From: an uncultured Verrucomicrobiae bacterium
GTDB taxonomy: Bacteria; Verrucomicrobiota; Verrucomicrobiia; Limisphaerales; UBA11358
NCBI GenBank assembly: GCA_963797825.1
Contig: CAWCRR010000041.1
Span: 24,436-88,435 of the forward strand
Reading direction: 5' to 3'
Length of the DNA: 64,000 bases
The position numbers and the translations under genes are program-made. The notes under the pieces are model-generated. The model was not told where the DNA came from. It saw only the letters and a program-made list of their open reading frames with translations, and searched no databases. Shown here piece after piece: positions 31,702-51,167 of this stretch. The first letter of the stretch is position 1, and each line of letters opens with the position of its first letter.

Positions 31702-33195
31702 TTACGCCGGCGCTGGGGCCGTCACCGGTGCCATCACCGGTTTTTCCTGCCAGCCAAACATCTTGCCGCGCTTGATCAGCTCCACGATCTCCGGCGGCAC
31801 ATCGTTTTCCCAGGTGGCATCGCCCGATTGGATTTTCGTCAGCACGAACGGCGGGAACAGCGAAAGGTAATCCGGATTGTAATCCTTTATGCTGACGATG
31901 TATCCATTCTCCAGCAGGTGCGCATAGAGATGCCGCAGATGGTCGGCCACCTGCAAATTGTCCGCCGTGATGATCTGGCCATCGGCTGCTTCCCGGATCC
32001 AGATGCCGCTCTCGCCCTGGGGCGCGGTCGCATCGGAAAAAGATTTTTTGGCCGGATCTCGGAAAGGATAGACGTAAAGTTTCGTGGTGCCCTTGAAGAG
32101 GCGTCCGAGCGATTCCAACAAGCCGCCGGGCAAATCCGCGTAGAATTTCTCGTCAAAAATCCCGCGCAAACTCGGGATGCCCAGCGCGATGCCCTGCATT
32201 TTTTGCGTGTACCGCGAGAGATATTCCACCAGGCGATAGTACCGGCCAAAATTGGAAATGAGCACCGGCTTGCCCAGCGTGCTCAAAAGGTCCACGCGGT
32301 CCAGAAAATCCTTGTGCGCCAACGTCTCGTCTTCCAGCACGCTGTGCAGCGTCATCTCCATGAGGATGACCGGCTCCTGGCCCTGCACTTCCGGTTCGCT
32401 CAAGAAATGTTGGTGCGCGCGGTCCAAAATATCCAGGGTCGTCTTGGTGATGGGCCGAAAACTGCCGCGCTCCACCAACACCGATTTTTGATACAGCACT
32501 TCGCCCGGGATCACCACCTCGCCGTCCGCGGTGAACATCGCCGCCTCGGACATCTGGTGTTGCACCAGTTGCAACGCCATCAAACGGTTGTCCACCGCTG
32601 CAAAACTTTCCCCCGAGAATTTGATCATGTCGATCTCGATGCGCTCGCGGTTCAGGTCATCCATCAAGGCGGTAATGATCTTGTCCGGCTCCTGGAAATT
32701 ATAGAACGACGCGTGGATGAGATTCACGCCGACGATGCCCAGCGCCTCCGACTGATGCAGACTGTGATCCTCGAGCATCCGGACATGGATGATAATTTCC
32801 GAGGGCTTTTCATGCGGACGGGTCTGGAATTTCATGCCCAGCCAGCCGTGCCCGCCGTCGCGCCGCGTGGTGACGGTGTTGGCAAAAACAAAAAAGGTGC
32901 ATTTATCCCCGCGGGTCTTGTCGAGCCGCTGCAAAAGCAGGTCGAATTCGTAATTCAACATCGATTGCAGGCGCTGGCGGCTCACGTAACGGTCGGCGGT
33001 GCCGTAGATCGCATCGCTGACGGCCATGTCGTAGGCGGAGATGGTCTTGGCGACGGTGCCGGACGCCTTGCCCACGTGGAAGAACCAGCGCGCTGTTTCC
33101 TGGCCCGCGCCGATCTCGGCAAACGTGCCGTACCGTTTGGCGTCCATATTGATTTGCAACGCCTTTTGGCCGGTGCTGAATTTATCGTCGGGCAT
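31702..33195 (-). CDS. Conserved hypothetical protein
   Basis: 497-aa uninterrupted ORF with protein-like composition (RYGTFAEIGAGQETARWFF..). I recognised no catalytic motif. The antisense 489-aa ORF is treated as a shadow. Confidence 0.5.
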   Translation of the reverse strand: MPDDKFSTGQKALQINMDAKRYGTFAEIGAGQETARWFFHVGKASGTVAKTISAYDMAVSDAIYGTADRYVSRQRLQSMLNYEFDLLLQRLDKTRGDKCTFFVFANTVTTRRDGGHGWLGMKFQTRPHEKPSEIIIHVRMLEDHSLHQSEALGIVGVNLIHASFYNFQEPDKIITALMDDLNRERIEIDMIKFSGESFAAVDNRLMALQLVQHQMSEAAMFTADGEVVIPGEVLYQKSVLVERGSFRPITKTTLDILDRAHQHFLSEPEVQGQEPVILMEMTLHSVLEDETLAHKDFLDRVDLLSTLGKPVLISNFGRYYRLVEYLSRYTQKMQGIALGIPSLRGIFDEKFYADLPGGLLESLGRLFKGTTKLYVYPFRDPAKKSFSDATAPQGESGIWIREAADGQIITADNLQVADHLRHLYAHLLENGYIVSIKDYNPDYLSLFPPFVLTKIQSGDATWENDVPPEIVELIKRGKMFGWQEKPVMAPVTAPAPA

Positions 33196-33451
33196 AAGAT
33201 CCTTGGCGGCAATCTAGCGGAAGAATTCCCGCGTGTCCATTGTGGAAGAATTTGGGTAGTGGGCTACTTTCGATTTGAGTTTCCGTTTCCGGTCTGACTG
33301 TGGCAGAGTTTGGACATGATTAAACCGAAAAAGGCTCGCAAAGGTGATTCCGCCCAGGTAGCGCATAGCGTCTTTTCAGACGTGATAAGAATTTCCGAAA
33401 AACCAATTAAGGCACCTGTAAAGCCATCACGCAAACCACGTCAAAAATGAT

Positions 33452-34687
33452 TCAGCGCTCAATACCATCACCAACCACCCACATTTTAGACTCAGTGATC
33501 AATTTTTCGGACAATGAGTGGATAATGGTATAAGGCTGCACGAGAGGGTTTGAGAATCGGTATCGGAATCTTCTCGACGATCCCTGTCTTTCCAAGACAC
33601 ATCCCCTTTTAGTTGAAATAAACTCATTGAGGTGCCTTTGAATATCCGAAACCGTACAGTCCTCGCCTGTTATAATTGCCATCGTTCTTGCTACTTCTGA
33701 TGCTTGAAAGAACCCTTGTTCATCATTCCCGCACAATGCACATGCGAGAAGTGTCATTTTGTAAGTGCTGGATTTGTGCGCGCTTGAAACAGCGGTATAA
33801 TAAACATGTGCAACGGTTTGCTTCGTCTTAACGATATGATTAACCGCGCTTTCAAAATCCGACTCGATTATTTCTTCGGATTTTCTGTCCACAGCGGCCA
33901 ATCCTGACTCAAGAGCAAGAAGGTGCGTGTAATGAGGTAATCCATGTGATAACCTTATTATTTTTTCCCTCACTTCGGTGGTCATATTTATCCCCGATTT
34001 TTCAAGCCCCTTATCAATGACTTCACCTAATTCTAAATCCGTCATTCGATACATTGGAATTTGTACCAATGCCCTTTCAATAGATTGATGTTCGGCAATT
34101 AGTTCATTGACCGATTGCGCAACGCCCACCAATAAAAGTGTAGTCTCTATGTTGTGATCGGAAAGGTTCTTTATTGTATCTGCCATTAAAGTCCGGCAAC
34201 TCTTATCCTGGATTCGATTAAATTCATCAAAGACAATCAATGTTCGTTCCTTCAATGTGGACAGTGCCCGCCTTACATCGTCAGGAACGACTTTTGCAGG
34301 AATAAGATCGTTAAGATTTTTCTCCGTTTCGGTTTCTTGTTTTGCAAAACCGGGAGATGAAGATTTGATCTTAAATGTTAGTTCTTTGAACGCTTTATGC
34401 CAAAGCGATGAAAAGTCATCGGAGCTATCACAATTAATCGTATCCGAATTAACAATTTTGATCCCGGCCTGCGATGCAAGTTCGGCTAAAACTTTTGCTA
34501 GGGAAGTTTTTCCGACACCCGGCTCGCCATACATAATAGCGTGTTGGCCATGTTGGATAATTGCTCCAATCACCATATCGGTTTGCGTTTGTCGTCCGGC
34601 GAAAAGGCTGTATTTTTCAATTGGCGCTCCCGGCCTAAAAGCCAATCTCAAAAAAGTTCTCATTGCGACTTGATCTTCATCTTTCAT
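33452..34687 (-). CDS. ORC/Cdc6-like AAA+ ATPase with C-terminal winged-helix region (passenger gene)
   Basis: Walker A is YGEPGVGKTSLA and Walker B is LIVFDEFN. The C-terminal part looks wHTH-like. I chose the ATG at 34687 (MKDEDQ); the ORF opens at 34750. Confidence 0.65.
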   Translation of the reverse strand: MKDEDQVAMRTFLRLAFRPGAPIEKYSLFAGRQTQTDMVIGAIIQHGQHAIMYGEPGVGKTSLAKVLAELASQAGIKIVNSDTINCDSSDDFSSLWHKAFKELTFKIKSSSPGFAKQETETEKNLNDLIPAKVVPDDVRRALSTLKERTLIVFDEFNRIQDKSCRTLMADTIKNLSDHNIETTLLLVGVAQSVNELIAEHQSIERALVQIPMYRMTDLELGEVIDKGLEKSGINMTTEVREKIIRLSHGLPHYTHLLALESGLAAVDRKSEEIIESDFESAVNHIVKTKQTVAHVYYTAVSSAHKSSTYKMTLLACALCGNDEQGFFQASEVARTMAIITGEDCTVSDIQRHLNEFISTKRGCVLERQGSSRRFRYRFSNPLVQPYTIIHSLSEKLITESKMWVVGDGIER

Positions 34688-34784
34688 GTCTAAATTGTAA
34701 CCTAATATAATAAATATGCAACTAAAAAATAAGTATTGACACCAATACAATTAAGTGTGACACTAAAGCCTGTAATTTGAAATT

Positions 34785-35615
34785 ATGAATTGCTTAAGCA
34801 CAGAAGAAAGAGCTAGAGTGGTAAATTGTTTGATTGAGGGTTGCAGCTTGCGCTCCACAGTACGCTTAACTGGCGTTGCCAAGAAAACCGTGTCACGCAT
34901 CTTGGTTGAAGTCGGCGAAGCTTGTGCGGCCTATCATGACCGGATTATGCGGAACCTGCCATGCAAGGTGATTCAGGTGGACGAGGTTTGGTCTTTCACT
35001 TATTGCAAACAGGCCAACATTCCAGACCACTTACAAGGGCAAGACGGTATAGGGGACACCTGGACATGGATCGCCATTGATGCTGACTCAAAACTCATCC
35101 CCTCATGGCATGTTGGATTGCGTGATTCCGCCGCCGCTTATCACTTTATTCACGATTTAGCCGGACGGCTAGCACATCGCGTCCAGCTAACCAGCGACGG
35201 CCACAGGCCGTATTTGGAAGCTGTGGAAGATGCCTTTGGCAGCGAGATTGATTATTCGATGCTGATAAAAATGTATGGGCGCGAAACTGGCATTGGTGAA
35301 GTCCGCTATTCACCGCCAGTTTGTATTGGGGCGCGCCGTCGTAAAATCATCGGGAATCCAGACCGCAATCTGGTTTCCACCAGCTATGTTGAACGCCAGA
35401 ATTTGACGCTTCGCATGACTAACCGCCGTTTTACCCGCCTGACGAATGCCTTTTCAAAAAAAATTGAGAACCACAAGCACATGATTGCGATTTACGCCAT
35501 GAATTATAATTTTTGCCGGATTCATCAGACTTTACGTTGCACTCCGGCAATGGAGGCTAAAATCACAGACCGCGTTTGGAGCTTGGAAGAAATGATAAAT
35601 TCGATTACCAATTAA
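34785..35615 (+). CDS. IS1-family transposase (single-ORF type)
   Basis: 276 aa with an N-terminal HTH. DDE-type core blocks are VIQVDEVWSF, WTWIAIDADSKL, LTSDGHRPY, YVERQNLTLRMTNRRFTRLTNAFSKK and NYNFCRIHQTL. Confidence 0.8.
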   Translation: MNCLSTEERARVVNCLIEGCSLRSTVRLTGVAKKTVSRILVEVGEACAAYHDRIMRNLPCKVIQVDEVWSFTYCKQANIPDHLQGQDGIGDTWTWIAIDADSKLIPSWHVGLRDSAAAYHFIHDLAGRLAHRVQLTSDGHRPYLEAVEDAFGSEIDYSMLIKMYGRETGIGEVRYSPPVCIGARRRKIIGNPDRNLVSTSYVERQNLTLRMTNRRFTRLTNAFSKKIENHKHMIAIYAMNYNFCRIHQTLRCTPAMEAKITDRVWSLEEMINSITN

Positions 35616-35617
35616 TT

Positions 35618-36253
35618 ATGTCCAACATCAATCAGAACCAACCCACCATTCCCGCTGTTCATTTTCCGCCACAAGCAATTCCGCAGCCGATTCAGACAGC
35701 AAAAACGATTTACATTAATTTTTTTGACGGCATAAACGAGCCGAAAGTTAAGGCGTTAATGGGAATGATTTCTCAAATGGTCGCCCAAAATCGTCCAGAA
35801 ACGTTATATTTTCTGTTCTCGTCTCCTGGCGGTTCCGTAGATGCAGGAATCGTGCTTTATAATTTTCTCCGGGCTTTGCCTGTGGAAATCGTTATGCACA
35901 ACACTGGAACTGTTGCTTCTATTGGGACGGTTATTTATATGGCTGGATCGAAACGATATGCCGCGCCCCAATCAACATTTTTATTTCACGGAGTTCAGAC
36001 CCTTTTCCCACCCAATGCCCCCATGTCGCATCAGCAACTTTTTGAGAGGCTCAGCATGGTCCGGCAGGATGAAAATAAAATAGCTGGAATTATAGCCTCC
36101 CGATCAAGTTTGTCAGAAAAGGAGATTCGGAAACTATTTCACCAAGGGGAATCCAAAGACTTGGCGTTTGCTCAAAGCAAATCCATCGTCCACGAAGTTC
36201 GAGACCCTGCTATCCCCAAAGACGCACCATTCGTCACCGTTAACCTCAATTGA
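35618..36253 (+). CDS. ClpP/S14-like serine peptidase (passenger gene)
   Basis: 211 aa. FSSPGGSVDAG, TGTVASIGTVIYMAG (Ser nucleophile context) and FLFHGV (His) align with ClpP blocks. It starts 2 nt after the transposase stop. Confidence 0.65.
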   Translation: MSNINQNQPTIPAVHFPPQAIPQPIQTAKTIYINFFDGINEPKVKALMGMISQMVAQNRPETLYFLFSSPGGSVDAGIVLYNFLRALPVEIVMHNTGTVASIGTVIYMAGSKRYAAPQSTFLFHGVQTLFPPNAPMSHQQLFERLSMVRQDENKIAGIIASRSSLSEKEIRKLFHQGESKDLAFAQSKSIVHEVRDPAIPKDAPFVTVNLN

Positions 36254-36712
36254 GGCGGTTGGAATACCCTCCTCAAAAGCCGTTTTTATAGCATTTTGCT
36301 CTGTCTCTAGCTCTATTTTTTGGGCAATGTTCATTTGGTGAATGACGTTATGTCACCATAATTGGTTGCATATGTCAACGACTTAGTGAAATTTTTCACA
36401 ATCTTCAAAATCAGGTTGAGTGCTAAGCATGTTTTATGCCCACGTTGTTTTGAAAGGTAAAACATCATACCAAGCAGAAAGTTCCGGTACAAAATCATAC
36501 AATTTGGAATTTTTTACCCAAAGTAGCCCACTACCAGAATTTGGGCGTTCTTCGGTCATTCGTGCTTCGTCATTAATTAGTCATTATGGTTTAGAAATTA
36601 GTCATTCCACATCATCCGCCCAACTTCTCCACCCTCGATCTTTCTTCCTTCTACCTTTCCAGCCACTTCATTTCCTCTTTTCGCCGCCTGCAATTGCGCT
36701 ATACTGGTTGGC

Positions 36713-37786
36713 ATGTATCGGACGCAGGATTTACATGTCAGAGAGATTGTCCGCCTGGCCTCGCCGCGCGAGCTGAAAAGCGAAACGCCATCGGGCGAGG
36801 CCGCGGCCGCCACGGTCGCGCGCAGCCGCGAGCGCGTCATCCGCATTTTGCGGCAGGAGGACCCCCGGCTGCTCGTCGTCATCGGACCTTGCTCCATCCA
36901 TGACCGCAAAGCCGCGCTGGAATACGCGGAAAAATTGAACGTCCTGCGCAAGGAATTCGCCGACCGCATGGAGATCATCATGCGCGTTTATTTTGAAAAG
37001 CCGCGCACGATCATCGGCTGGAAAGGCCTCATCAACGACCCGCACCTGGACGGTTCGCAGGACATCGAGACCGGCCTGAAAATCGCGCGTCAACTGTTGC
37101 TGGAGATCATCGGCATGGGTTTGCCCGCGGCCACGGAATTTTTGGACCCCATCGTGCCGCAATACATCGCCGACCTCATTTCCTGGGCGGCCATCGGCGC
37201 GCGCACCACCGAATCGCAAACGCATCGCGAGATGGCGAGCGGCCTTTCCATGCCGGTCGGCCTCAAAAACTCCACGGACGGCAGCTTGCAGGTCGCGATA
37301 GACGGCATGGGCGCCACGCGCCATTCGCACAGCTTTCTGGGCATCAACGAAGACGGCGCCACGGCCATCGTGCGCACCACGGGCAACCCGCACGCGCACG
37401 TCGTCCTGCGGGGCGGGCGGGCGAAAACCAATTACGACGCCGAGAGCATCCGCGCGGCGGAAGAAAAATTGATTTCTGACAAATTGCCGCCGGTGCTGAT
37501 GGTGGATTGCAGCCATGCCAATTCGGAAAAACAGCATAAACGGCAGGAAGACGTCTGGCACAGCGTCATTCAACAGCGAGTCGAAGGCACGCGCTCGCTC
37601 ATCGGCTTGATGGTCGAGAGCAACCTGTTTGAAGGCAACCAGCCCATGCGGGACAGCTTGAAGGACCTGCGTTACGGCGTAAGCATTACCGATTCGTGCA
37701 TCGGATGGGAAACCACCGAGCGGATGCTGCGCTGGGGATACGAAACCTTGGGAAAAGCCATCCCCGCCAAAGTTTCCGCAGTTTGA
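36713..37786 (+). CDS. 3-deoxy-7-phosphoheptulonate (DAHP) synthase, class I (AroF/G/H type)
   Basis: 357 aa. Motifs are [27 protein letters not shown] and DCSHANS. Confidence 0.9.
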
Positions 37787-37787
37787 T

Positions 37788-38813
37788 ATGAGCAGGACCG
37801 GTTACGACCCGATCAGACCGTGGTTCCTGGCATTGGAATCCATGGGCGAGTTCATCGGCATGCGCTTCGCCCGCATCCCCCCCGGAAAATCCGAGCCGGA
37901 CTGGATTTACATTCGCCATTGCGATTATGACGGCATCGGCGCCATCAAAAAAATGTTCACCGAACGCGGCGGAGCGGTCGGAGAACTGCCGCAAGCGCGC
38001 CATCCCGCCAAACCATCATTCGGTTCCCTATTCAAACTGATGAAGTTACAGATGCAACCGCGCCGGCGGTTACATTGGAAGGAATTGGGGAACAGCAAAC
38101 AATTGAGCGGCATCCCACAACCCGCGCCCGCCGCCGCGTGGTATGTTTTCAGTGAGGCCGACACGTTGCGGATGCGGAAATATTGCAACACGGCCGGTGT
38201 GACGGTGAATTCCTTTTTATTGGAGCAACTGACTGCAATCATCCGGCCCTATCTGGAAGAAGGCGCGTCGGCTTCCGTTCCCTGGATGATACCGGTCAAT
38301 TTGCGGGGCCGGGTAATGTCGTCAGGTGAATTGGCCAACCAGACCAGTTACCTCAGCGTCACGGTGCGGCCCGCCGATACCATCCGCGATATCCATCAAA
38401 GCACCCAGGCGGCGATGGACCGCGAGGAACATTGCACCAATTGGTTCGCCTACGGCCTCGGCAGATATGTGCCGCAGCCCGTGAAAAGATTTTTGATCGC
38501 CAAAGAGCTTGCGACCTCGCAATGGAACCTCGGCGCGTTCTCAAATCTCGGCGCGTGGGATTCGGAGAAAAAGATCACCTCGCCCGATTGCATCGGGGCC
38601 TGGCTCGTGGCGCCGCCGGTGTTGCGCTTTCAACTGGTTGGCGCGGGCTGCATCACGTTCCAAAATCGCCTGAGCCTGCTCATCCAAACGCATCCGGAAT
38701 TGACGACCGATGCCGCCGTTTGCCGGAAATGGATCCAGGAATGGGTGACGGCGATTGAAACGGACTTGGCCAAACCCGATGCCAGCCGCATTTCCGCACC
38801 CGTCCCGGCTTAA
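37788..38813 (+). CDS. Hypothetical acyltransferase-like protein with HxxxDG motif
   Basis: 341 aa. RHCDYDGIGA fits the HxxxDG motif of condensation/WS-DGAT/CAT-type acyltransferases. It starts 2 nt after the DAHP synthase stop. Confidence 0.35.
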   Translation: MSRTGYDPIRPWFLALESMGEFIGMRFARIPPGKSEPDWIYIRHCDYDGIGAIKKMFTERGGAVGELPQARHPAKPSFGSLFKLMKLQMQPRRRLHWKELGNSKQLSGIPQPAPAAAWYVFSEADTLRMRKYCNTAGVTVNSFLLEQLTAIIRPYLEEGASASVPWMIPVNLRGRVMSSGELANQTSYLSVTVRPADTIRDIHQSTQAAMDREEHCTNWFAYGLGRYVPQPVKRFLIAKELATSQWNLGAFSNLGAWDSEKKITSPDCIGAWLVAPPVLRFQLVGAGCITFQNRLSLLIQTHPELTTDAAVCRKWIQEWVTAIETDLAKPDASRISAPVPA

Positions 38814-40049
38814 AATTTATACGTCGCCGAAATATTCACCGCTTTATTGAAGACCGTGTATTTTCCATCGGCAGTTTGACCGCTCATAGATGGCGGGCTT
38901 CCCGAAACGTTGCGTTGTGCGTAGGCAAATTGAAATGCCGCCACCCAATCCCAGCGCTTCCCGTGGTGGCCGAAACCGACGCCGCCGAGACTCAAATCCG
39001 CATCGTCAATCAATGGATTGTAAGTGGACGAGGGACAGGAATTTGCACTATACATATAGCCGACGCTGGCGAAATAACCGTCCCAAAGTTGACGGGTGAC
39101 TCCGAATTCATAGATGAAGCTGTCCTGAAAATTAAATGTGAGAGTTGGGGGAGGGCCTGGGAATGGGCTTGCGCTAAAAGTGGCGGTTTTGTCCAAGCTC
39201 CATTTCGACCAATCCAGGTCCACTTCGAAATTCCAGTTTGTAGTTGGACGAAACGAAACGCCACCGGTGATATATTCCGGGAAATGAAGGGTAGCGCTGC
39301 TATTGACGGATGCAGGAAATGGCGCGCCAAAATTTTGTCCGGCTTTGCCACGATATGTTATTTCTGTGCTCGAACGGTAATTCAGGCCAAGAGACCACAT
39401 CGGATCTGGTTGCCATAAGATGCCTGCGCCATAACCAGGATCCCCATCCTGTGCCTTTATAATTAAAACGGTTGCCGGGTGAGAAGAAGAGCGCATTTTG
39501 AAGGGTTACTTGTGAAAAATTGAAATTCGGTCCGATGGCGACCGATAAGGTTTTGGATATTTTCCATGCGACAACCGGGTTTACGCTCACGTATTCAAGG
39601 CTCCCTTGTTCGGCGATGGAATTAAACGGCGTATTGTTTCCCCAATTGACTGACAATCCGTAAGGAGCATAGACACCAAGACCCACGGAAAGTGGAATGT
39701 TCGTGAACGTGTCCACAAAATAAAATTGGGGGACGGCTTGCGGCGTCGTGTCCGTTTTCGCGCTTCCGGCAGGAGAAGAATACTTTGAGTCCGCAGATAT
39801 GACATAGAGACCGGCGCTCGCCTGTATGCCTGGCAACTGCGTGATGCCGGCCGGATTGTAGTAAATGGCGGCAGGGTCATCGGCGGTGGCGGTGAAGGCG
39901 TCGCCCCGCGCGATGGCTTCGGGGTCCTGGTTGGGCAGACGAAAGGCATTGGCCCAAAGGGCATCAACAGAAAGAATAAGTACCGCGGCCGCGGCAAAAA
40001 TCCTGGCAAACGCACTGCTTGCAATTTTCTTATTTAGATTTTTTTTCAT
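38810..40049 (-). pseudogene. FadL/TodX-family outer-membrane hydrophobic-compound channel, one frameshift
   Basis: The N-terminal 200 aa (signal, NAFRLPNQDPEAIARGDAF, YYNPAG) lie in ORF 39300..40139 from the ATG at 40049. The remainder (GYGAGILWQP ... ATYKF) lies in ORF 38810..39496. The frame changes near 39440-39465. Confidence 0.7.
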
Positions 40050-40277
40050 AAAAAAAAATAATTTATCGGTCTTTTTTGGTTTCCTTATGTAACAATTTAT
40101 CGCCTTTATTCGGGACACTAATGTCCATTGTTTTGACAAACACTTTTAGATTACTGAGTTACACCTGGTTTTTTACACTGAGCTTAACATGGCAAAGCAA
40201 TGGCAATGCCAGTCCACAAATGAATCGTCTCCGGCAAACCGTTAGCAAATATCCCGCCGGACAACAATCCCTTTGTT

Positions 40278-41798
40278 TTGGCGCGGAAAATGTTCCATTT
40301 TAGCGGTATGAAGCAGGCATTAACAGGCAACGGCCACGGCGCGGAGAGTCAGGCGAAGAAAAATCTCCCGGCGTCCGCCAAAGCCGCGTCCGTTGACAAG
40401 GGAAATCAGGTCACGTTCCAGACTGCGGAACACGTGAAGCTGCATGGCAGCCTTTCGCGGGTGACGCGGCACCTGGCAGTCTTTGAACTTTACAGCCCGA
40501 TTGCCACGCCTCGATTTTCAGAAGTGCTGAGCGAGTTCACGATTATGATGCAATCCCGCGCCGCCTATTCAGGACGCGCGGTCCTTTCCAAAGTGCTGGA
40601 TGCGGGCACCAAAGTCATCTGCGAGGCAATGCTGGATGTGATGGACTGGCAGGATTTGAATTTGATCTCGGCGTTGCAACAGGAGGGGCAGATTGCCAAA
40701 GAGTTCAGGGAGTTTCTCGCCGAATGGCAAAAAAATTTCAAGGTTGCTCCCGAATTCAAGGTGGCCGTGGCGGACATGCAGACGTTTCTCGAGGATTTCC
40801 GGTTGTGGATGGAGCAGACGGAACTCAAGCTGCAGGCCCAGCCGTTTGATCGGCAGGCGTCGGAGCGCAAAATTTTGGAAGCGCTGGTGGGTCCGGTCAT
40901 GCCCAGCCTGGCGTCCTTGTTTGAAAGATTCGAAAGATTGATCTACGAGATACCGAAGGACGCCCAGGACGCCTCCATCCTCTACGCCAAGCGGATGCTG
41001 CATCCGTCGGTTCTGTGCTCTCCGTTCATGCGCCGGACTTTTGAGAAGCCGCTCGGTTACGCCGGTGATTATGAAATGGTAAACATGATGACCCGCGACC
41101 CGTTCCAGGGCGATTCCCTGTTTGCGAAAGTCCTGAACACATTTTTTTTAAACACGCCGCCGGTGGTGGCCCACCGCAACCGGATCGATTCCCTCACCGA
41201 GCGTCTGCATTCCGAAGTATTCCGCAAGTCGGTCAAAGGCCAGCCAACGAAAATTTTCAACCTGGGCTGCGGCCCCGCCCTGGAGATCCAGCGTTTCCTG
41301 GCCAAGTCGCCGCTGTCGGATAACGTTGAATTCACGCTCCTCGATTTCAACGATGAGACCATCGAATACACGCAGCGGAATCTTGCGCAGATCTGCCGCA
41401 AATATGACAGTGACTGCATGATCCGCGTCATAAAAAAATCCGTGGCCCAATTGATCAAGGACAGCTCCGGCTTTGCGCGCGGCTCATTTGACCTGGTCTA
41501 TTGCGCCGGACTCTTTGATTATCTGCCCGACCCGGTTTGCTCCAGGTTGATGGCGATCTTTTGGAATTTGGTAGCCCCCGGAGGGCTGTTGCTGGTTTCC
41601 AATGTCCACTCCAACAATCCCTCGCGCGGCTGGATGGAATATATGGTGGACTGGCATTTGATTTATCGCGACGCCGGGCAAATGCATGACATTCTGCCGC
41701 CGGATGTTCCCAGGGAACAGGTCCGGATTTTTGTCGAAGAAATCGGCGTAAATATTTTTGCGGAAATTCGAAGACCGTTAGATGCTGAAAATCCGTAA
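40278..41798 (+). CDS. Class I SAM-dependent methyltransferase with long N-terminal extension (PhcB-like architecture)
   Basis: 506 aa. Motif I is IFNLGCGPALE, followed by LLDFND and FDLVYCAGLFDYL in the C-terminal third. The roughly 280-aa N-terminal region has no recognised function. Confidence 0.65.
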   Translation: MARKMFHFSGMKQALTGNGHGAESQAKKNLPASAKAASVDKGNQVTFQTAEHVKLHGSLSRVTRHLAVFELYSPIATPRFSEVLSEFTIMMQSRAAYSGRAVLSKVLDAGTKVICEAMLDVMDWQDLNLISALQQEGQIAKEFREFLAEWQKNFKVAPEFKVAVADMQTFLEDFRLWMEQTELKLQAQPFDRQASERKILEALVGPVMPSLASLFERFERLIYEIPKDAQDASILYAKRMLHPSVLCSPFMRRTFEKPLGYAGDYEMVNMMTRDPFQGDSLFAKVLNTFFLNTPPVVAHRNRIDSLTERLHSEVFRKSVKGQPTKIFNLGCGPALEIQRFLAKSPLSDNVEFTLLDFNDETIEYTQRNLAQICRKYDSDCMIRVIKKSVAQLIKDSSGFARGSFDLVYCAGLFDYLPDPVCSRLMAIFWNLVAPGGLLLVSNVHSNNPSRGWMEYMVDWHLIYRDAGQMHDILPPDVPREQVRIFVEEIGVNIFAEIRRPLDAENP

Positions 41799-41800
41799 TA

Positions 41801-44509
41801 TTGGCTAAAACCCTTAAAATGGCTGATTTTCAACAAAATTTAACTGAAATTAACCGCGCCTTTATGGAAGCGGAGCGCGCCGTTCGCATCCGCAATTTCC
41901 GCATCGCCTGCATCTTGGCTGCGGTCTTTTCCCTGTCGGGCAGCAGTTTGGATGTCCTGCTGTATCGGGACCATTTCCAGGAATTTCTCAAACTCCGCCT
42001 AATCCTCGCCGGGTTGCTGTTATTCATTTGGTGGCTGGTCAAAACTCCGGTGGGAATGCGGATTCACCGGTTTTTGGGGTTGATGTTGCCGGCATTGCCG
42101 ACATTTTTTCTGGCCATTATGCTCTATCGAACCAGCCCCAGTTCGGGCTATTATGCGGGCTTTAACCTGGTTTTGCTCGGCACCGTGATCATCCTTCGTT
42201 GGACTTTTATCGATACGGTGATCATGACGTGCGAGGTCTTGGGGATGTATCTTATCGCTGCTTTATTGAACCCGCCGGGCGGGCCGGGGGACATCTACGG
42301 GTCGCGCGTTTTTCTTACCAACGTCTTTTTCGTCGTGGTTACAGGCGTTTTTGTCATTATCGGCAATTACTATTACAATCAAATCCGCTTTCGCGAGTTT
42401 GCGTTTCGATACGAGCTTGACAAGAACAAGCGTGAACTCGAGGAGACCAACCGCAAACTCGTTGAACTGGACCAACTGAAGAGCCGCTTTTTCGCCAACA
42501 TCAGCCATGAGATGCGCACCCCGCTCACGCTGCTGCTCGGCCCGCTGGAAACCTTGATGCAACGATTTGAGCGCTCCATCGACGAAGATTCGCGCGATCT
42601 GCTCGGCACCATGCACGCCAATGGCATGAGACTTCTGAAATTGATCAATGATCTGCTCGACCTCATCCGCATGGAAGCCGGGCGCATGGACATTAAAAAC
42701 GACCCCCTCGCGGTCGCCGATTTCATCAAGGGCCTGGCCAGCGCCGTCCGGCAGGTCGCCCAAAACAAACAGATCGCTTTTGATGCCTCGGTGGACCCGC
42801 AATTGACCGCCATCCTCACCGACCGCGACAAGCTCGAAAAAATTTTACTCAATCTAATGTTCAATGCCCTCAAATTCACCCAGGAAGGCGGAAAGGTTTG
42901 GGTGCGGGCGGAGAAGGAAGGCGATAATTTTGCGCTGGTCGTGGGCGATACGGGCATCGGCATTGCGGAAAGAAATCTGCCGTTTATTTTCGATCGCTTC
43001 TGGCAGGCAGACAATTCTTCCCGCCGGAAACACGCCGGCGTCGGCATCGGCCTGGCCCTGGTGAAGGAGTTGACCGAAATGATGCGCGGCAGCGTTGAAG
43101 TAAAAAGCATAGAAGGCAAAGGCACCACCTTCACGGTGAAATTGCCCTTCCATGAGGCCCCAATGCCGCAAAAGACACAATCGCCCGGCTCTTTGCTTCC
43201 GGACAATGACTCGGAATCCGGGGAGTGGCTGGCCGGCTTGTATCGGCGCGCTGAGTTGTTTCCGACCGCGACCCTGGCGAGAACCAAAGCGGCGCCGGGG
43301 GATAGGGGCGGCACGCGCGCCATGGTCCTGCTGGCCGACGATGAGCCGGACATGCGCCGCTATTTGAAATCCGAGTTGGACGCCGATTATAATGTGCTGG
43401 AAGCGGTGGATGGCGTTGACGCGCTGGAGAAGGCGACCGAGCAACTGCCGGACATCATTTTGCTCGATATGATGATGCCGCAAATGGACGGCCTGGATGT
43501 TTGCCGCGAATTGCGCAAGCGCCAGGCCACCTTGAACATTCCCATCATTTTGCTCACGGCGCGCGCGGACGAAGAAACGAAATTCGACGCGTTGGAGATG
43601 GGAGCCAATGATTTCCTCGCCAAACCGTTTTCATCCACCGAATTGCAGGCGAGGATTCGCAACCTCATCGAATCGCATCATTACCAGCGCAAATTGACCA
43701 AACAAAACGTCGCCCTGACCTCCGCCATCGAGCAGATCAAGGAAACGGAAATGCAATTGGTGCAGTCGGAGAAGCTGGCATCGCTCGGGCGCATGAGCGC
43801 CGGGATCATCCATGAGATCAACAATCCGTTGAATTACACCCTGACGGGCTTGTTCGCCTTGCGCAACAAAGGCAAGCTGCTTCCGCCGGAGGATCGCCTC
43901 GAGTACAACGACATTCTGAACGATGTGGAAGAGGGCATCAAACGCGTCCGCAACATCGTCTCGGACCTGCGCACCTTCACTCACCCGGGCGGCGGCGGCG
44001 GTGAAATGGTGGAAGTGGATGATGCGGTGGATGCCTCCCTTCGGTTTTTGGCTGGCGAATGGAAGGGGAAAGTCCATATTGAAAAGAATTTGCCGGCCCA
44101 TTTGGCAGTCTGGGGGAACCGGAATAAGTTGGTTCATGTCCTGGTCAATTTGCTGCAGAACTCAATGGACGCGCTGTCGGACAAAACGTTTGAAGGTTCT
44201 GAACAGCGCACGATTTGGATCGATGGACATGCGAAAGGGGACCGCAATTCCATCGTCATTCGTGACAATGGCCCGGGCATCGAGCCGCAGGTGCTGGACA
44301 AGATTTTTGATCCGTTTTTTACGACTAAAGATGTCGGCAAGGGCATGGGGCTGGGCTTGAGCATTTGCTATCGGATCTTGCAGGGTTTTGGCGGAACCAT
44401 TTCCGTCAGGAGCGAACGCGGAAAAAATTGCGAGTTTACCATCGAATTGCCGGCTAAAGAAAGGCCGGCGGAACTGGAGACAAATGATGAACAACTTTTA
44501 CGATTATAA
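41801..44509 (+). CDS. Hybrid sensor kinase with architecture TM sensor - HisKA/HATPase - REC - second HisKA/HATPase
   Basis: 902 aa with about six N-terminal TM helices. The first core has H-box SHEMRTPL, DTGIGI and GVGIGLAL. The REC domain has LLADDEPDMR..DMMMPQMDG. The second core has IHEINNPLN, DNGPGI and GKGMGLGLS. Confidence 0.85.
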   Translation: MAKTLKMADFQQNLTEINRAFMEAERAVRIRNFRIACILAAVFSLSGSSLDVLLYRDHFQEFLKLRLILAGLLLFIWWLVKTPVGMRIHRFLGLMLPALPTFFLAIMLYRTSPSSGYYAGFNLVLLGTVIILRWTFIDTVIMTCEVLGMYLIAALLNPPGGPGDIYGSRVFLTNVFFVVVTGVFVIIGNYYYNQIRFREFAFRYELDKNKRELEETNRKLVELDQLKSRFFANISHEMRTPLTLLLGPLETLMQRFERSIDEDSRDLLGTMHANGMRLLKLINDLLDLIRMEAGRMDIKNDPLAVADFIKGLASAVRQVAQNKQIAFDASVDPQLTAILTDRDKLEKILLNLMFNALKFTQEGGKVWVRAEKEGDNFALVVGDTGIGIAERNLPFIFDRFWQADNSSRRKHAGVGIGLALVKELTEMMRGSVEVKSIEGKGTTFTVKLPFHEAPMPQKTQSPGSLLPDNDSESGEWLAGLYRRAELFPTATLARTKAAPGDRGGTRAMVLLADDEPDMRRYLKSELDADYNVLEAVDGVDALEKATEQLPDIILLDMMMPQMDGLDVCRELRKRQATLNIPIILLTARADEETKFDALEMGANDFLAKPFSSTELQARIRNLIESHHYQRKLTKQNVALTSAIEQIKETEMQLVQSEKLASLGRMSAGIIHEINNPLNYTLTGLFALRNKGKLLPPEDRLEYNDILNDVEEGIKRVRNIVSDLRTFTHPGGGGGEMVEVDDAVDASLRFLAGEWKGKVHIEKNLPAHLAVWGNRNKLVHVLVNLLQNSMDALSDKTFEGSEQRTIWIDGHAKGDRNSIVIRDNGPGIEPQVLDKIFDPFFTTKDVGKGMGLGLSICYRILQGFGGTISVRSERGKNCEFTIELPAKERPAELETNDEQLLRL

Positions 44510-45746
44510 AAAATATGCGATCCTGTACGTGGACGACGAGGAAAAGTCGCTGTCGAATTTCTCGCGCGCCTTTGGAGGGGAGTTCCGCGTTTTTACGGCT
44601 TCGACAGCGCAGGCCGGGTTTGCGCTCCTGCAAAAGCACGCCGACGAGATCGGCCTGTTGATGACCGATCAGCGGATGCCGGGCGAAAAGGGCGTCTGGC
44701 TTCTGGAGAAAGCGCGGCAATTTCGCCCCAACACTTTGCGCGTGCTGGTGACGGCCTACGCGGACATGGAGGCGGCCATCGCCGCTGTCAACAGCGGCGC
44801 CATTTACAAATATGTCACCAAGCCCTGGGACCCGCCGCAATTGGAATTGACGCTGCGGCAGGGGCTGGAGTTTTTCATGGTGCAAACCGAGCGCGACCAG
44901 TTGCTGCACGAAAAAATGTCCGTGCTGCGCAACATGATGATCGCCGACCGCATCGTCAGCCTGGGGTTGCTCGCCGCCGGCCTGAGCCATCAGATCCGCA
45001 ATTCGCTCGTGGCCGTGAAAACATTCCTCGACCTGGCGCCCAAAAAAATGGCGGAGGAGCGCGCCAGCACCAATGGCCTTCGCAATCCAGACTTTTGGAA
45101 GGACTACCACTCGAACGTCCAATCCCAGATCGAAAAGATCAACGGTTTGTTGAAGGATTTGTGGGTGGCGTCCGAAAATTCGTCCACCCCGTTTGCCGAT
45201 GAGGTTTCCCTGCACGAAGCCGTTGCCGAAAGCCTGGAGGCTTTTAAGGAGCCATTCGCCGGAAGGCGGATCGAAGTGGAGACCAATATTCCAGAGTCCT
45301 TGCCAAAAATGAAGGTGGACAAGCCCAAATTCAAGCGCCTGTTCGAGCTGATCTTCAAGGAGGAGATCGCGACCCTGCCGGCCGGTTGCAAAATTTCCCT
45401 GTCGGCGGAATTGCAAGGCGGCGCCAAGCCCGAAATTTTTGTCCGCATCAGCGACAACGGTCCCGGCCTGCCGCCGGACGCCCTGCGCGTGGTGTTCGAT
45501 CCGTTCGTCGTGCGTGAATCCGTTCCCAGCGAATATGGCATCAACCTGATGGCCTGCTTTTTTATCGTGCATCACCACGGCGGAACGATTGACGCCAAGA
45601 GTTTGTCTGGCCGCGGAACGACCTTCACGATCCGGTTGCCGTTGCACCCCGAACGGGCGCCCATGGAAAAGCCCGGCGACAATGATTATCTCCAGAAGGC
45701 CCTGCTGAACGACGAACTGTGGAAGAAATTGATCGCAGGGGGCTGA
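44484..45746 (+). CDS. Response regulator receiver fused to a kinase-like output domain
   Basis: The REC domain has ILYVDDEEKS..MTDQRMPGEKG..KPWD. It is followed by H-box-like SHQIRNSL, SDNGPGL and a weak N-box. I chose the ATG at 44484; the ORF opens at 44388 and overlaps the upstream kinase. Confidence 0.8.
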   Translation: MMNNFYDYKKYAILYVDDEEKSLSNFSRAFGGEFRVFTASTAQAGFALLQKHADEIGLLMTDQRMPGEKGVWLLEKARQFRPNTLRVLVTAYADMEAAIAAVNSGAIYKYVTKPWDPPQLELTLRQGLEFFMVQTERDQLLHEKMSVLRNMMIADRIVSLGLLAAGLSHQIRNSLVAVKTFLDLAPKKMAEERASTNGLRNPDFWKDYHSNVQSQIEKINGLLKDLWVASENSSTPFADEVSLHEAVAESLEAFKEPFAGRRIEVETNIPESLPKMKVDKPKFKRLFELIFKEEIATLPAGCKISLSAELQGGAKPEIFVRISDNGPGLPPDALRVVFDPFVVRESVPSEYGINLMACFFIVHHHGGTIDAKSLSGRGTTFTIRLPLHPERAPMEKPGDNDYLQKALLNDELWKKLIAGG

Positions 45747-46292: not shown

Positions 46293-46571
46293 TCAAATCC
46301 CCATGACTTCTCGCAATTTCGTATCAACCTGTATTTGATGCATCTTCATTGCTAAAAGCAAATTTCGATAGTCTACCAATCCAGCCTTCCAGTGTGGATG
46401 CTCATAGCCATTTGCTAGGTAAAACTTTTTGAAAATAAGAACGTGGCGTTTCATCAGCGGCTCGGCTTGCTCCAGACGGTTCATGGCAATGAGCACCGTT
46501 GAGAGATTGTGAAGATGGATGGCAAGAGTTGGATGATCCGGGCCAAAGCTTTTCTCGTCGATGGCCAACAT
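46293..46571 (-). pseudogene. C-terminal fragment of a TPR (kinesin-light-chain-like) protein
   Basis: 92 aa. GPDHPTLAIHLHNLSTVLIAMNRLEQAEPLMKRHV is a TPR_12-like repeat. No upstream continuation exists. Confidence 0.5.
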
Positions 46572-46628
46572 AATCGAACGGGTCAGTAGTCAGTAATCCA
46601 AAGTCGGGAAAGGTGCAGGGTACAAAGA

Positions 46629-47003
46629 ATGAAAGTGTCAAAAGTGAGGACTGACACGTTTTGGCGGTATTTGTGTCCCAAGTTTCACCGCCAAAGCTTT
46701 CATGAATTTGCCAAGGAAAGCATTTTATGGAGCCGTTGGGCGGCCGCTTACTATTTACAGCAACGCACCAAAGGCGGCTCGCATCACACTGCGGTCCGCG
46801 CCCTGGCCTTCAAATGGCAGCGGATTATCTGGCGCTGCTGGCAGGACCGGCGACCCTATGACCAGACCATCTATGAAGCATCCTTGATAAAACATGGCAG
46901 CCCGATTGTCGCGCTGTTCGACCGCGTGGACTTGGGCAAAAGCCCGTGGAAACATCCGGCGAACAAAATTGAAAAATCCGTTGACGGATTACCTCAGAGG
47001 TGA
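46629..47003 (+). pseudogene. 3' fragment of an IS110-family transposase gene
   Basis: AAYYLQQRTKGGSHHTAVRALAFKWQRIIWRCWQDRRPYDQTIY is the conserved IS110/IS116/IS902 C-terminal block. The N-terminal DEDD domain is absent. Confidence 0.7.
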
Positions 47004-47095
47004 GCTGAGCCACGCCGACGGGCGAGTGGCTCCGCAAGCTCGATAACCGTTGTATAACCCAAACCATCCATAAACTCAAGGGGCAGTCGGCGTTG

Positions 47096-48593
47096 TGTCG
47101 GAACTTAATGAGAATGTCCCTATTTGAACTTAATGGAAATGTCCCTATTGGGAGAGGATGGCGGCAGCCATCCTGTCCCGGACATGGAGACATTGACAAT
47201 GAATCGGAAAGAACGGAATCGGATCACGATCATGGCGGGGATCAAAAGCAAAGCGCTGAGCCAGGTGGAGGCAGCGGGACTGATGGGGGTGGGCTATCGG
47301 CAAGCCAAGCGGATCTGGCGGCGGTATCAAGCGCAAGGGGATGCTGGTTTGGTGCATGGGCTGCGCGGCAAACCGGGGCTGCGGCGCAAGGCCCCCGCCG
47401 TGCGCACGCTAGTGCTGGCGCGTTACGCTGAGGAACGCTACGCGGATTTCGGACCCACGCTGCTGGCCGAGGAGTTGGCCAAGGAAGGGATCGTGGTGGA
47501 TCACGACACGGTCCGGCGGTGGTTGCTGGCCGAGGGGAAGCTCACGGTGCGCCGACGCAAGCAAGTGCATCGGCAATGGCGGGAGCGCAAGCCCTGTTTC
47601 GGGGCGATGGTGCAACTGGACGGCTCGCATCACGACTGGTTTGAAGGACGGCGGGAGAAGTGTGTACTGATGGTGATGGTGGATGACGCGACCAACCGGA
47701 TGCGGGCGCGTTTTTCCGAGGAAGAAACGACGCGGGCCAGCTACGATGTGTTGGAAAGCTGGGGACGCAAGCACCGTTTGCCTGGGAGCTTGTACGTGGA
47801 TCGGGACAGCATCTACCGCTGCGAAGGGGCGGCCAGCGTAGCCGATCAACTGGCCGGCAAAGAACGGCAAACGCAGTTTGGCCGGGCGATGGCGACGTTG
47901 GGGGTGGAACTAATTTTGGCCAATAGTCCGCAGGCCAAAGGCCGGGTGGAACGGATGAACGGAGTGTTGCAAGACCGACTGGTCAAGGCATTGCGACTGG
48001 CCAAGATCAACGACCTGGAAAGTGCGAACCGGTTTCTGGAAGAAACCTATCTGGGAGAGTTCAACCAGCGGTTTGCGCGGAAGGCGGCCAGCCCGATGGA
48101 CGCGCATCGAGGGCTGCCCCGGAACTTGAACGAAGTTTTGAGTTGGGAAGAAGAACGGGTGGTGCAACGGGATTGGACCGTGGGCTGTGAAGGAAAATGG
48201 TATCAACTGGACCAGCAACATGAGGCGTTGAGCCTGGTTGGACGCAAAGTGGTGGTGCGGACGCTGCGGGACGGGCGGGTGCAACTGGTCTATCGCGGGC
48301 AGAAACTCAAGTGGCGCCAACTGCCGCAACGGCCCGCGCATCTCAAGCCAGTCAAGCCCCTAACCGCCAGACCCGCGAATCAACCGCCAGGGGCAGGCCA
48401 CCCGTGGCGGCGTCCGCTGTTGGCGGGCGGGCGGGCAGTGCGGTTTGGGTTGGGGGATTCCGGTCGGCCTCCGCTACGCTCCGGCCTCCCTCCATCCCCC
48501 AACCCAAACCGGGAAACAAACAAACAACATCAACCAACAAAAGGGGACATTTTCTCCTAAGTTATCAAGGGGACATTTCTATTAAGTTTTGAC
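47096..48593 (+). mobile_element. ISNCY-family insertion sequence (about 1.5 kb)
   Basis: The imperfect terminal IRs are tgtcggaacttaatgagaatgtccc and gggacatttctattaagttttgac. Each end carries a second subterminal copy of the aacttaatgNaaatgtccc motif. A 17-bp direct repeat aggggcagtcggcgttg flanks both ends (47079-47095, 48594-48610). Confidence 0.85.
47184..48560 (+). CDS. ISNCY-family DDE transposase
   Basis: It has an N-terminal HTH (LSQVEAAGLMGVGYRQAKRIWRRY). The integrase-core blocks are VQLDGSHHDWF, VMVDDATN and QAKGRVERMNGVLQDRL. I chose the ATG at 47184; the ORF opens at 47124. Confidence 0.85.
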   Translation: METLTMNRKERNRITIMAGIKSKALSQVEAAGLMGVGYRQAKRIWRRYQAQGDAGLVHGLRGKPGLRRKAPAVRTLVLARYAEERYADFGPTLLAEELAKEGIVVDHDTVRRWLLAEGKLTVRRRKQVHRQWRERKPCFGAMVQLDGSHHDWFEGRREKCVLMVMVDDATNRMRARFSEEETTRASYDVLESWGRKHRLPGSLYVDRDSIYRCEGAASVADQLAGKERQTQFGRAMATLGVELILANSPQAKGRVERMNGVLQDRLVKALRLAKINDLESANRFLEETYLGEFNQRFARKAASPMDAHRGLPRNLNEVLSWEEERVVQRDWTVGCEGKWYQLDQQHEALSLVGRKVVVRTLRDGRVQLVYRGQKLKWRQLPQRPAHLKPVKPLTARPANQPPGAGHPWRRPLLAGGRAVRFGLGDSGRPPLRSGLPPSPNPNRETNKQHQPTKGDIFS

Positions 48594-50988: not shown

Positions 50989-51167
50989 GGCGCATCTTGA
51001 CACTGTCTTGAATCGTTCCGCCCGCTCTGCGCGGGCGGGGACATCGCAGCCCGTCCTCCGTAGCGACACTGCGGAGGGTGGACGCGATGTCCCTACCAAA
51101 AGCGCTGCTGGACGCGGCGCGGACGGCGCAGCGCGCCGTCCCTACCAGGAACAGTGTCAAGATGCGA
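50989..51167. repeat. TIR-bounded REP composite (family B) filling the whole intergenic region
   Basis: ggcgcatcttgacactgtc at the left faces gacagtgtcaagatgcg at the right. The interior carries gggacatcgc..gcgatgtccctac and ggacggcgcagcgcgccgtccctac hairpins. The sister element is at 57537-57705. Confidence 0.75.

Follow-up and report, generated by a model that had tools for sequence, protein, structure and literature searches.

The stretch of DNA analysed here, 64 kb of contig CAWCRR010000041.1 from an uncultured Verrucomicrobiae bacterium (the window; positions are those of the window unless another locus is named), carries a locus whose three central genes are homologous to phcB, phcS and phcR of the phc cell-density signalling system. 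These encode an S-adenosylmethionine (SAM)-dependent methyltransferase, a hybrid sensor kinase and a Rec-controlled histidine kinase (Rec-kinase), and are closely packed, with 2 nt between the stop codon of the methyltransferase gene and the start codon of the hybrid kinase gene and an overlap of 26 nt between the two kinase genes. Divergent from the methyltransferase gene lies a gene for a FadL-type outer-membrane channel; it is convergent with, and overlaps by 4 nt, an open reading frame (ORF) of 341 amino acids (aa), the ATG of which is found 1 nt past the stop codon of a 3-deoxy-D-arabino-heptulosonate 7-phosphate (DAHP) synthase gene. All six genes had been proposed in a preliminary description of this DNA and were found at or very near the positions given there (Table 1).

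The starts of the methyltransferase gene (40308) and the Rec-kinase gene (44484) were taken from the gene models of a 92%-identical relative. In G+C content the locus resembles the remainder of the window. A scan of 36.3-46.4 kb for sigma-70 promoters and intrinsic terminators gave no mark of operon ends, promoter-like sites being rarer there than in shuffled sequence.

Table 1. Features of the six-gene locus and of its flanks (REC, receiver domain; DHp, dimerisation and histidine phosphotransfer domain; CA, catalytic and ATP-binding domain)
Feature	Position	Strand	Basis or remark
Class I-alpha DAHP synthase (AroF/G/H type)	36713-37786	+	Pfam DAHP_synth_1; NCBIfam NF009395, TIGR00034
Condensation-fold acyltransferase-like ORF, 341 aa	37788-38813	+	Invariant HxxxDG; AlphaFold2 and Foldseek; no Pfam family
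FadL/TodX (Toluene_X) outer-membrane channel	38810-40139, split into 39300-40139 and 38810-39496	-	Pfam
PhcB-family SAM-dependent methyltransferase, 496 aa	40308-41798 (ORF from 40278)	+	Homology to PhcB
Hybrid sensor kinase, 902 aa	41801-44509	+	Pfam HisKA x2, HATPase_c x2, Response_reg
Rec-controlled histidine kinase (REC-DHp-CA), PhcR-like, 420 aa	44484-45746	+	Pfam REC, HisKA, HATPase_c
497-aa protein, no Pfam match	31702-33195	-	494-aa counterpart at same relative position in L002 and L003
STAND/AAA-type ATPase	33452-34750	-	In low-GC island
IS1-like transposase	34785-35615		In low-GC island
ClpP-like protease	35576-36253		In low-GC island
TPR fragment, small ORF and 478-aa HTH/integrase-like transposase	46293-48560		Between Rec-kinase and LptF/G
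578-aa ORF after LptF/G	51154-52890	+	GAF-GAF-HisKA-HATPase kinase at same position in L002

The methyltransferase and the two kinases

Operons of Cupriavidus and Paraburkholderia served as anchors for the comparison in place of the Ralstonia sequence, the Phc proteins of all three genera being treated as homologues (PMC6989110). A tblastn search against plasmids gave a full-length homologue of the methyltransferase on the Paraburkholderia graminis plasmid pPHS1_P, where a kinase and two response regulators come next, and this homologue, used as a query, led to Cupriavidus proteins at 68% identity. The Cupriavidus locus (L006) has the canonical phcBSRQ order, with PhcB (463 aa), PhcS (443 aa; MASE8-HisKA-HATPase), PhcR (381 aa; REC-HisKA-HATPase) and PhcQ (332 aa; REC).

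The methyltransferase probably starts at the ATG at 40308, which gives 496 aa; an alternative upstream TTG at 40278 would yield 506 aa. It aligns with Cupriavidus PhcB at 35% identity over 458 aa (E 1e-104; aa 35-486 against aa 11-459) and is 37% identical to the Paraburkholderia graminis plasmid homologue, while the motifs KPLGYAGDY, HRxR and YCAGLFDYL are invariant in the methyltransferases of both phyla, those of Verrucomicrobiota and those of Burkholderiales. The preliminary description had seen in the N-terminal region of about 280 aa something extra relative to PhcB. The region is indeed present but aligns residue for residue with the PhcB proteins of Cupriavidus and Paraburkholderia, and so is a hallmark of the PhcB family rather than an addition. 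With 35-37% identity over about 455 aa (E about 1e-104), the protein does not fall into an unrelated clade; on this alignment it is a true full-length PhcB homologue, its non-Rossmann N-terminal part included. Cyclopropane-fatty-acid and ubiquinone methylases were rejected as other identities, as no such family scored above threshold in Pfam or NCBIfam.

An AlphaFold2 model (mean predicted local distance difference test, pLDDT, 88.6) divides the protein into a beta-barrel (aa 33-109), a helical domain (119-308) and a Rossmann methyltransferase domain (314-488). Pfam recognises only the generic families Methyltransf_25 and Methyltransf_12 (aa 327-440) and has no match in the beta-barrel or helical part, either of this protein or of Cupriavidus PhcB. 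Foldseek matches to the model are confined to the methyltransferase domain and cap, come mostly from natural-product methyltransferases and have query-normalised template modelling (TM) scores of at most 0.37, and a sequence search of the PDB gave just one marginal match, to the Rossmann part. The N-terminal parts are thus covered by no solved structure or Pfam family in the PDB, Foldseek and Pfam searches.

A database search with the methyltransferase gave more than 5000 relatives, and nearly all of the best 120 that bear an organism label come from metagenome-assembled genomes (MAGs) of Verrucomicrobiota; the PhcB-specific N-terminal region as the sole query matched 1149 cluster representatives at E <=1e-3, of which 157 reach 1e-30. 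The JGI product name of homologues is ‘extracellular factor (EF) 3-hydroxypalmitic acid methyl ester biosynthesis protein’, which we take to be the KEGG product name of PhcB. Among cultured organisms, a Prosthecobacter sp. genome encodes a homologue. A 668-aa relative in Verrucomicrobium spinosum (WP_009961516.1), annotated by NCBI as ‘response regulator’, has a PhcB-like part that begins near residue 190, and this protein of a cultured type strain looks like a fusion of a receiver with PhcB. Shorter plasmid homologues (from Rhizobium, Pseudanabaena, Deinococcus and Pantoea) align with no more than the C-terminal half of the methyltransferase, beginning at about aa 200-240 (25-31% identity); they represent a related family in which the N-terminal barrel and the greater part of the helical domain are missing.

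The hybrid kinase can be divided into a multi-pass membrane sensor of PhcS type (MASE8-like, aa 1-205), a first DHp-CA core (core 1, ~215-460), a receiver (~505-625) and a second DHp-CA core (core 2, ~635-890). A profile of the sensor from 77 Verrucomicrobiota sequences matches the membrane region of PhcS with an hhalign probability of 99.9% (E 1.8e-34, 198 columns), and the motif SPYYAGLNL is common to the two. Core 2 (aa 631-887) is 35% identical to the core of PhcS (E 9e-49), and between it and the sensor lie a complete classical DHp-CA core and a receiver. At six surveyed loci a short kinase has the architecture of PhcS, with the sensor joined directly to core 2. As such kinases exist, the long kinase is to be seen as an insertion variant of PhcS, which by this comparison of domain order arose through the insertion of a DHp-CA-REC module into a PhcS-type kinase. 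Its best NCBIfam match is the LvrA family NF047465 (326 bits, below the cut-off of 1200 bits). A literature search on MASE8 found no relevant paper. A short kinase of about 453 aa, instead of the hybrid of about 900 aa, was noted at loci L008, L011, L037, L054, L070, L075, L087 and L089.

The Rec-kinase is 28% identical to Cupriavidus PhcR over 391 aa (E 6e-38), and the profile of its family aligns with PhcR along the full length (hhalign probability 100%, 354 columns), which bears out the likeness to PhcR that had been suggested. Judged by these alignments, the third gene is a Rec-controlled kinase of PhcR type, although its receiver and linker are nearer to PhcQ (44% identity over 156 aa; 197 profile columns) than to PhcR. 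Across 61 aligned sequences, the window protein and 60 orthologues, Asp18, Asp62 and Lys113 of the receiver are invariant and Thr90 occurs in 60, while the DHp histidine is present in 44 and a neighbouring histidine in 43. The N-box had rightly been called weak: the Asn for Mg-ATP is kept in only 14 of the 61 and is a Thr in the window protein, and the G2 box of the CA domain is likewise degenerate, with one conserved glycine left. As most orthologues have lost the Asn, we regard this as a conserved trait and not as recent decay. The score for the LvrB family NF047466 is 54.8 bits, against a cut-off of 500 bits.

Conservation of the trio was surveyed with one genome per species in the best 80 of at least 597 matching genomes, and the counts given here and below refer to loci with enough flanking sequence. 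The best 80 matches did not reach past Verrucomicrobiota, and most of the loci carry that label, including Limisphaerales, Verrucomicrobiaceae, Prosthecobacter and Opitutaceae. At 76 of 77 loci the start of a PhcS-type sensor follows the methyltransferase by no more than 200 nt, so that the linkage to a kinase is the same as in Burkholderiales, and the complete trio was found at 60 of 62 (54 with the long kinase, 6 with the short one). Throughout the phylum the three genes are kept together in close packing. Since the order of synthase and sensor is common to Burkholderiales and Verrucomicrobiota at about 35% identity, it points to functional coupling and not to inherited synteny alone. The phcB-phcS-phcR logic first proposed for this locus is therefore supported twice, by the homology of all three genes and by the recurrence of the trio. 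The suspicion that the Rec-kinase might be a generic neighbour of hybrid kinases did not hold: at the 80 loci, sequences that match its REC domain strongly (>=47% identity) are found only directly after a PhcS-type kinase, and other REC matches nearby are just 24-30% identical.

Some contigs with a typical cassette are titled Akkermansia muciniphila (freshwater MAGs), Bifidobacteriaceae or Pseudomonadales (L013, L017, L047, L056, L038 and others); these titles are probably taxonomic mislabels or binning errors in public records. In the reference operons, the one on pPHS1_P (424625-441971; a conjugative 494-kb plasmid) consists of the methyltransferase, a PhcS-like kinase, a 134-aa REC-only protein at the position of PhcR and a PhcQ-like regulator, with a gene of the cyclopropane-fatty-acid synthase family upstream. 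In Cupriavidus (L005, L006; 5698-7551), phcB is directly preceded by a gene of cytochrome b561 type and two YceI-like genes, YceI being a family of lipid- or polyisoprenoid-binding proteins.

FadL channel, acyltransferase and DAHP synthase

The two halves of the FadL gene score 83.9 bits and 59.1 bits with Pfam Toluene_X (PF03349; cut-off 29.7) and span profile positions 8-172 and 193-408. The gene had been described as divergent and frameshifted, which is true of this sequence, but a genuine gene defect is improbable. The frameshift is a 1-nt insertion relative to the intact 410-aa FadL gene of a close relative, and the extra base lies at 39442 within a run of four C; its removal restores a single FadL ORF with the same stop codon. 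A 201-nt soil-metagenome contig (run X1, word depth ~2) is identical to 39284-39485 except that it lacks base 39442. As the base is absent from an independent contig, an error of assembly or a minor variant is the probable cause, and in reality the FadL gene is probably intact. In the survey, a FadL gene lies within 900 nt upstream of the methyltransferase at 45 of 69 loci (24 divergent, 21 co-directional).

Some 700 proteins are homologous to the 341-aa protein; where an organism is given, it almost always belongs to Verrucomicrobiota, and some of the homologues are named ‘NRPS condensation-like’ by JGI (NRPS, nonribosomal peptide synthetase). The description of this gene as an HxxxDG acyltransferase proved apt, as the motif (H44, D48, G49) is invariant in 50 homologues and a condensation fold is predicted. 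Pfam has no family for the protein, and the sole library match is a weak one to the C-terminal part of wax-ester synthase/diacylglycerol acyltransferase (WS/DGAT). With an AlphaFold2 model (mean pLDDT 88.4), Foldseek matches NRPS condensation (C), cyclization (Cy) and epimerization (E) domains, PapA5 and TRI3 (E down to 2.6e-10; query-normalised TM-scores 0.42-0.62). The motif and the predicted two-lobed fold are features of the condensation/chloramphenicol acetyltransferase (CAT) fold, and both are shared with PapA5, WS/DGAT and TRI3, from which the window protein differs in being much shorter (341 against ~420-510 aa), in lacking a Pfam family and in its almost complete restriction to Verrucomicrobiota.

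Even distant members of this family stay with the locus: three of three adjoin a FadL gene and the trio, and in two the gene is co-directional with a FadL gene shortly upstream. Their loci also carry a fatty-acid desaturase, a GDSL lipase or a second FadL. Within the survey, the 341-aa protein is encoded within 2.5 kb upstream at 13 of 63 loci. We conclude from this neighbourhood and the predicted fold that it is a putative clade-specific accessory of the locus, likely to act on a hydrophobic acyl substrate.

The DAHP synthase scores well above the family cut-offs (519.4 bits against 343 for NF009395; 491.5 against 173.2 for TIGR00034). It does adjoin the acyltransferase gene, as had been noted, but it is not a conserved neighbour of the system: it occurs within 7 kb upstream at only 15 of 55 loci and, among the loci of the three distant acyltransferase members, at one, being absent from L088 and L089. 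A role as part of the signalling system was rejected for this poor conservation, the adjacency being local synteny only. The gene adjoins the locus and probably does not belong to the signalling system.

Proposed interpretation as a phc-type signalling cassette

Of the possible explanations for this arrangement, we favour one in which the locus is the Verrucomicrobiota version of the phc cell-density signalling cassette and works by a phosphorelay, and from the sequence comparisons and by analogy with known systems we estimate its probability at about 0.7. In the known systems, PhcB makes 3-hydroxymyristic or 3-hydroxypalmitic acid methyl ester (3-OH MAME or 3-OH PAME), and PhcS together with PhcR responds to these signals (PMC13320629). 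That the present cassette likewise produces and senses an ester is inferred by analogy. With SAM as methyl donor, the methyltransferase would convert a 3-hydroxy fatty acid, or a related one, into its methyl ester by O-methylation, a volatile product able to permeate membranes. This would build up with cell density, cross the outer membrane via the neighbouring FadL channel and be bound by the membrane sensor of the hybrid kinase. Core 1 would then autophosphorylate and hand the phosphoryl group to the internal receiver, which, as in LvrA/LvrB, may activate the PhcS-like core 2, and core 2 in turn would phosphorylate the receiver of the downstream Rec-kinase. The latter lacks the Asn for Mg-ATP in its catalytic domain, so that a part in phosphotransfer, a phosphatase activity or a scaffold function directed at an output partner is more likely than independent kinase activity. 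Within the Limisphaerales-type clade, to which this genome belongs, the lipid may undergo modification or processing by the condensation-fold acyltransferase that accompanies FadL. The recurrence of lipid genes near the loci of relatives (second FadL, GDSL lipase, fatty-acid desaturase) we count as support.

What the cassette shares with Phc is the gene order (methyltransferase, membrane kinase, Rec-kinase), the homology of the methyltransferase over its full length, the sensor family, the PhcS-like core 2 and a Rec-kinase that can be aligned along the whole of PhcR. It differs from Phc in the DHp-CA-REC module inserted into the kinase at 54 of 60 loci, in a Rec-kinase whose REC domain is nearer to PhcQ (44%) than to PhcR and whose catalytic domain lacks the N-box Asn, and in the attachment of FadL and, in one clade, of the acyltransferase.

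The kinase pair is also reminiscent of LvrA/LvrB/LvrC in Leptospira, where LvrA (PAS-DHp-CA-REC-DHp-CA) phosphorylates the Rec-kinase LvrB (PMC5863495). A 2026 structural study calls PhcR a prototypical Rec-controlled histidine kinase and describes how phosphorylation of the LvrB receiver frees the catalytic domain, so activating LvrB (PMC13269768). In both organisms a sensor-DHp-CA-REC-DHp-CA protein is followed by a REC-DHp-CA protein in one operon. LvrA, however, is a cytoplasmic protein that senses through a PAS domain, and no signal synthase is linked to it; the window proteins score far under the family cut-offs (1200 and 500 bits), and the catalytic domain of LvrB is active whereas the N-box of the window Rec-kinase is degenerate. 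A precedent for the channel comes from rhizobia, in which FadL handles long-chain acyl-homoserine lactones (AHLs) as quorum signals (PMC9938287). Here, too, an outer-membrane FadL channel would be tied to a hydrophobic quorum signal, but the rhizobial one is not encoded beside synthase or receptor genes and its signal is an AHL; in the window, unlike in rhizobia, it is the gene neighbourhood that suggests a link to a signal.

Several observations weigh against this interpretation. The N-box Asn is lost in 47 of the 61 Rec-kinases, unlike in PhcR and in the mechanistic step described for LvrB. MASE8 was not detected at the N-terminus of the window kinase by hmmscan even at E-values up to 1, so that the sensor was assigned from the profile comparison together with precomputed annotation, which gives MASE8 in an 84-87% identical orthologue and in PhcS. 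At 35% identity, the substrate of the methyltransferase could differ from 3-hydroxy fatty acids. A tblastn search of the window with PhcQ matched only the REC domain of the Rec-kinase and no separate PhcQ gene, and in the intact 92%-identical relative the gene after the Rec-kinase is LptF/G, not PhcQ. About one third of the loci are without an adjoining FadL gene.

The main rival is a cell-autonomous circuit for membrane-lipid or envelope homeostasis, built from the same phc homologues but having no diffusible population signal, in which the methyltransferase would alter an endogenous lipid or metabolite and the kinase would sense the resulting membrane state. Such a circuit would be at home among envelope and lipid genes (FadL and LptF/G here; a fatty-acid desaturase, LpxD and a GDSL lipase in relatives), and it would fit with what is known here of the output regulators of the Ralstonia system, of which PhcQ was not found in the window and the LysR-type PhcA was not searched for. 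We nevertheless consider it unlikely, since the synthase-sensor pair has been kept across two phyla in the order of a proven quorum-sensing system, and an outer-membrane conduit such as FadL suits an external ligand.

It is more doubtful still that the methyltransferase acts on a substrate of another class, an aromatic or shikimate-derived acid or, in the manner of CheR, a protein, with a likeness to phc that is merely architectural. The DAHP synthase gene 1 nt from the acyltransferase gene, a chorismate-binding enzyme near one related locus and a weak CheR match of the Paraburkholderia homologue (E 0.0011, below cut-off) could be read in this way. The DAHP synthase is however found at just 15 of the 55 loci, the PhcB homology extends over the full length and includes common motifs and the helical domain, which argues for related substrates, and FadL channels carry hydrophobic compounds. 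Finally, we regard loss of function or ongoing decay of the locus in this genome as very improbable: the FadL frameshift, the degenerate catalytic domain of the Rec-kinase and two insertions absent from the 92%-identical relative (insertion sequence and HTH-integrase genes at 46.3-48.6 kb, a low-GC island at 33.4-36.3 kb) might give that impression, but an independent contig lacks the single homopolymer base that makes up the frameshift, none of the three core ORFs is disrupted, the insertions lie outside the genes of the cassette, and the N-box loss, being common to most orthologues, is a conserved state.

The cassette thus suggests, by homology, that Verrucomicrobiota may use a fatty-acid methyl ester signal. 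We know of no autoinducer system or other cell-to-cell signalling described in this phylum, and Phc signalling has to our knowledge been studied almost solely in the plant pathogen Ralstonia and in Cupriavidus. Among the papers that could be searched we found none that links phcB-like systems to Verrucomicrobiota or describes a broad distribution of them, in agreement with the earlier remark that they are not described in this lineage, a remark which needs the qualification that the JGI annotation already gives the PhcB product name. If the interpretation as a phc-type signalling cassette is correct, lipid signalling by methyl esters would occur widely among bacteria that are abundant in soil and freshwater; the scan matched at least 597 genomes at species level. 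A more far-reaching proposal, which we put forward tentatively and at somewhat less than even odds, is that Verrucomicrobiota widely use phc-type methyl ester quorum sensing with a dedicated FadL conduit, a PhcS rebuilt as an LvrA-like phosphorelay, a pseudo-kinase in place of an active Rec-controlled kinase and a clade-specific signal modified by the acyltransferase (e.g. O-acylated), in which case signalling of Phc type would be ancient and shared between phyla rather than peculiar to Burkholderiaceae. The Verrucomicrobiota variant would then offer a natural set of PhcB/PhcS pairs for the study of signal specificity and illustrate how a simple sensor kinase can be rebuilt into a multi-step relay, and the cultured carriers Prosthecobacter and Verrucomicrobium spinosum would allow a direct chemical test.

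Flanking regions

On the DAHP synthase side, a low-GC island (~33400-36300) has a GC content of 0.44 against about 0.55 and is absent from the 92%-identical relative (L002). With its ATPase, transposase and protease genes it may be a mobile or defence-type insertion. On the other side, LptF/G comes directly after the Rec-kinase in L002, which is without the transposase-bearing insertion found in the window. Several related loci have, after the trio, a GAF-containing kinase, sometimes with an N-terminal REC domain, and this kinase could be a further relay partner.

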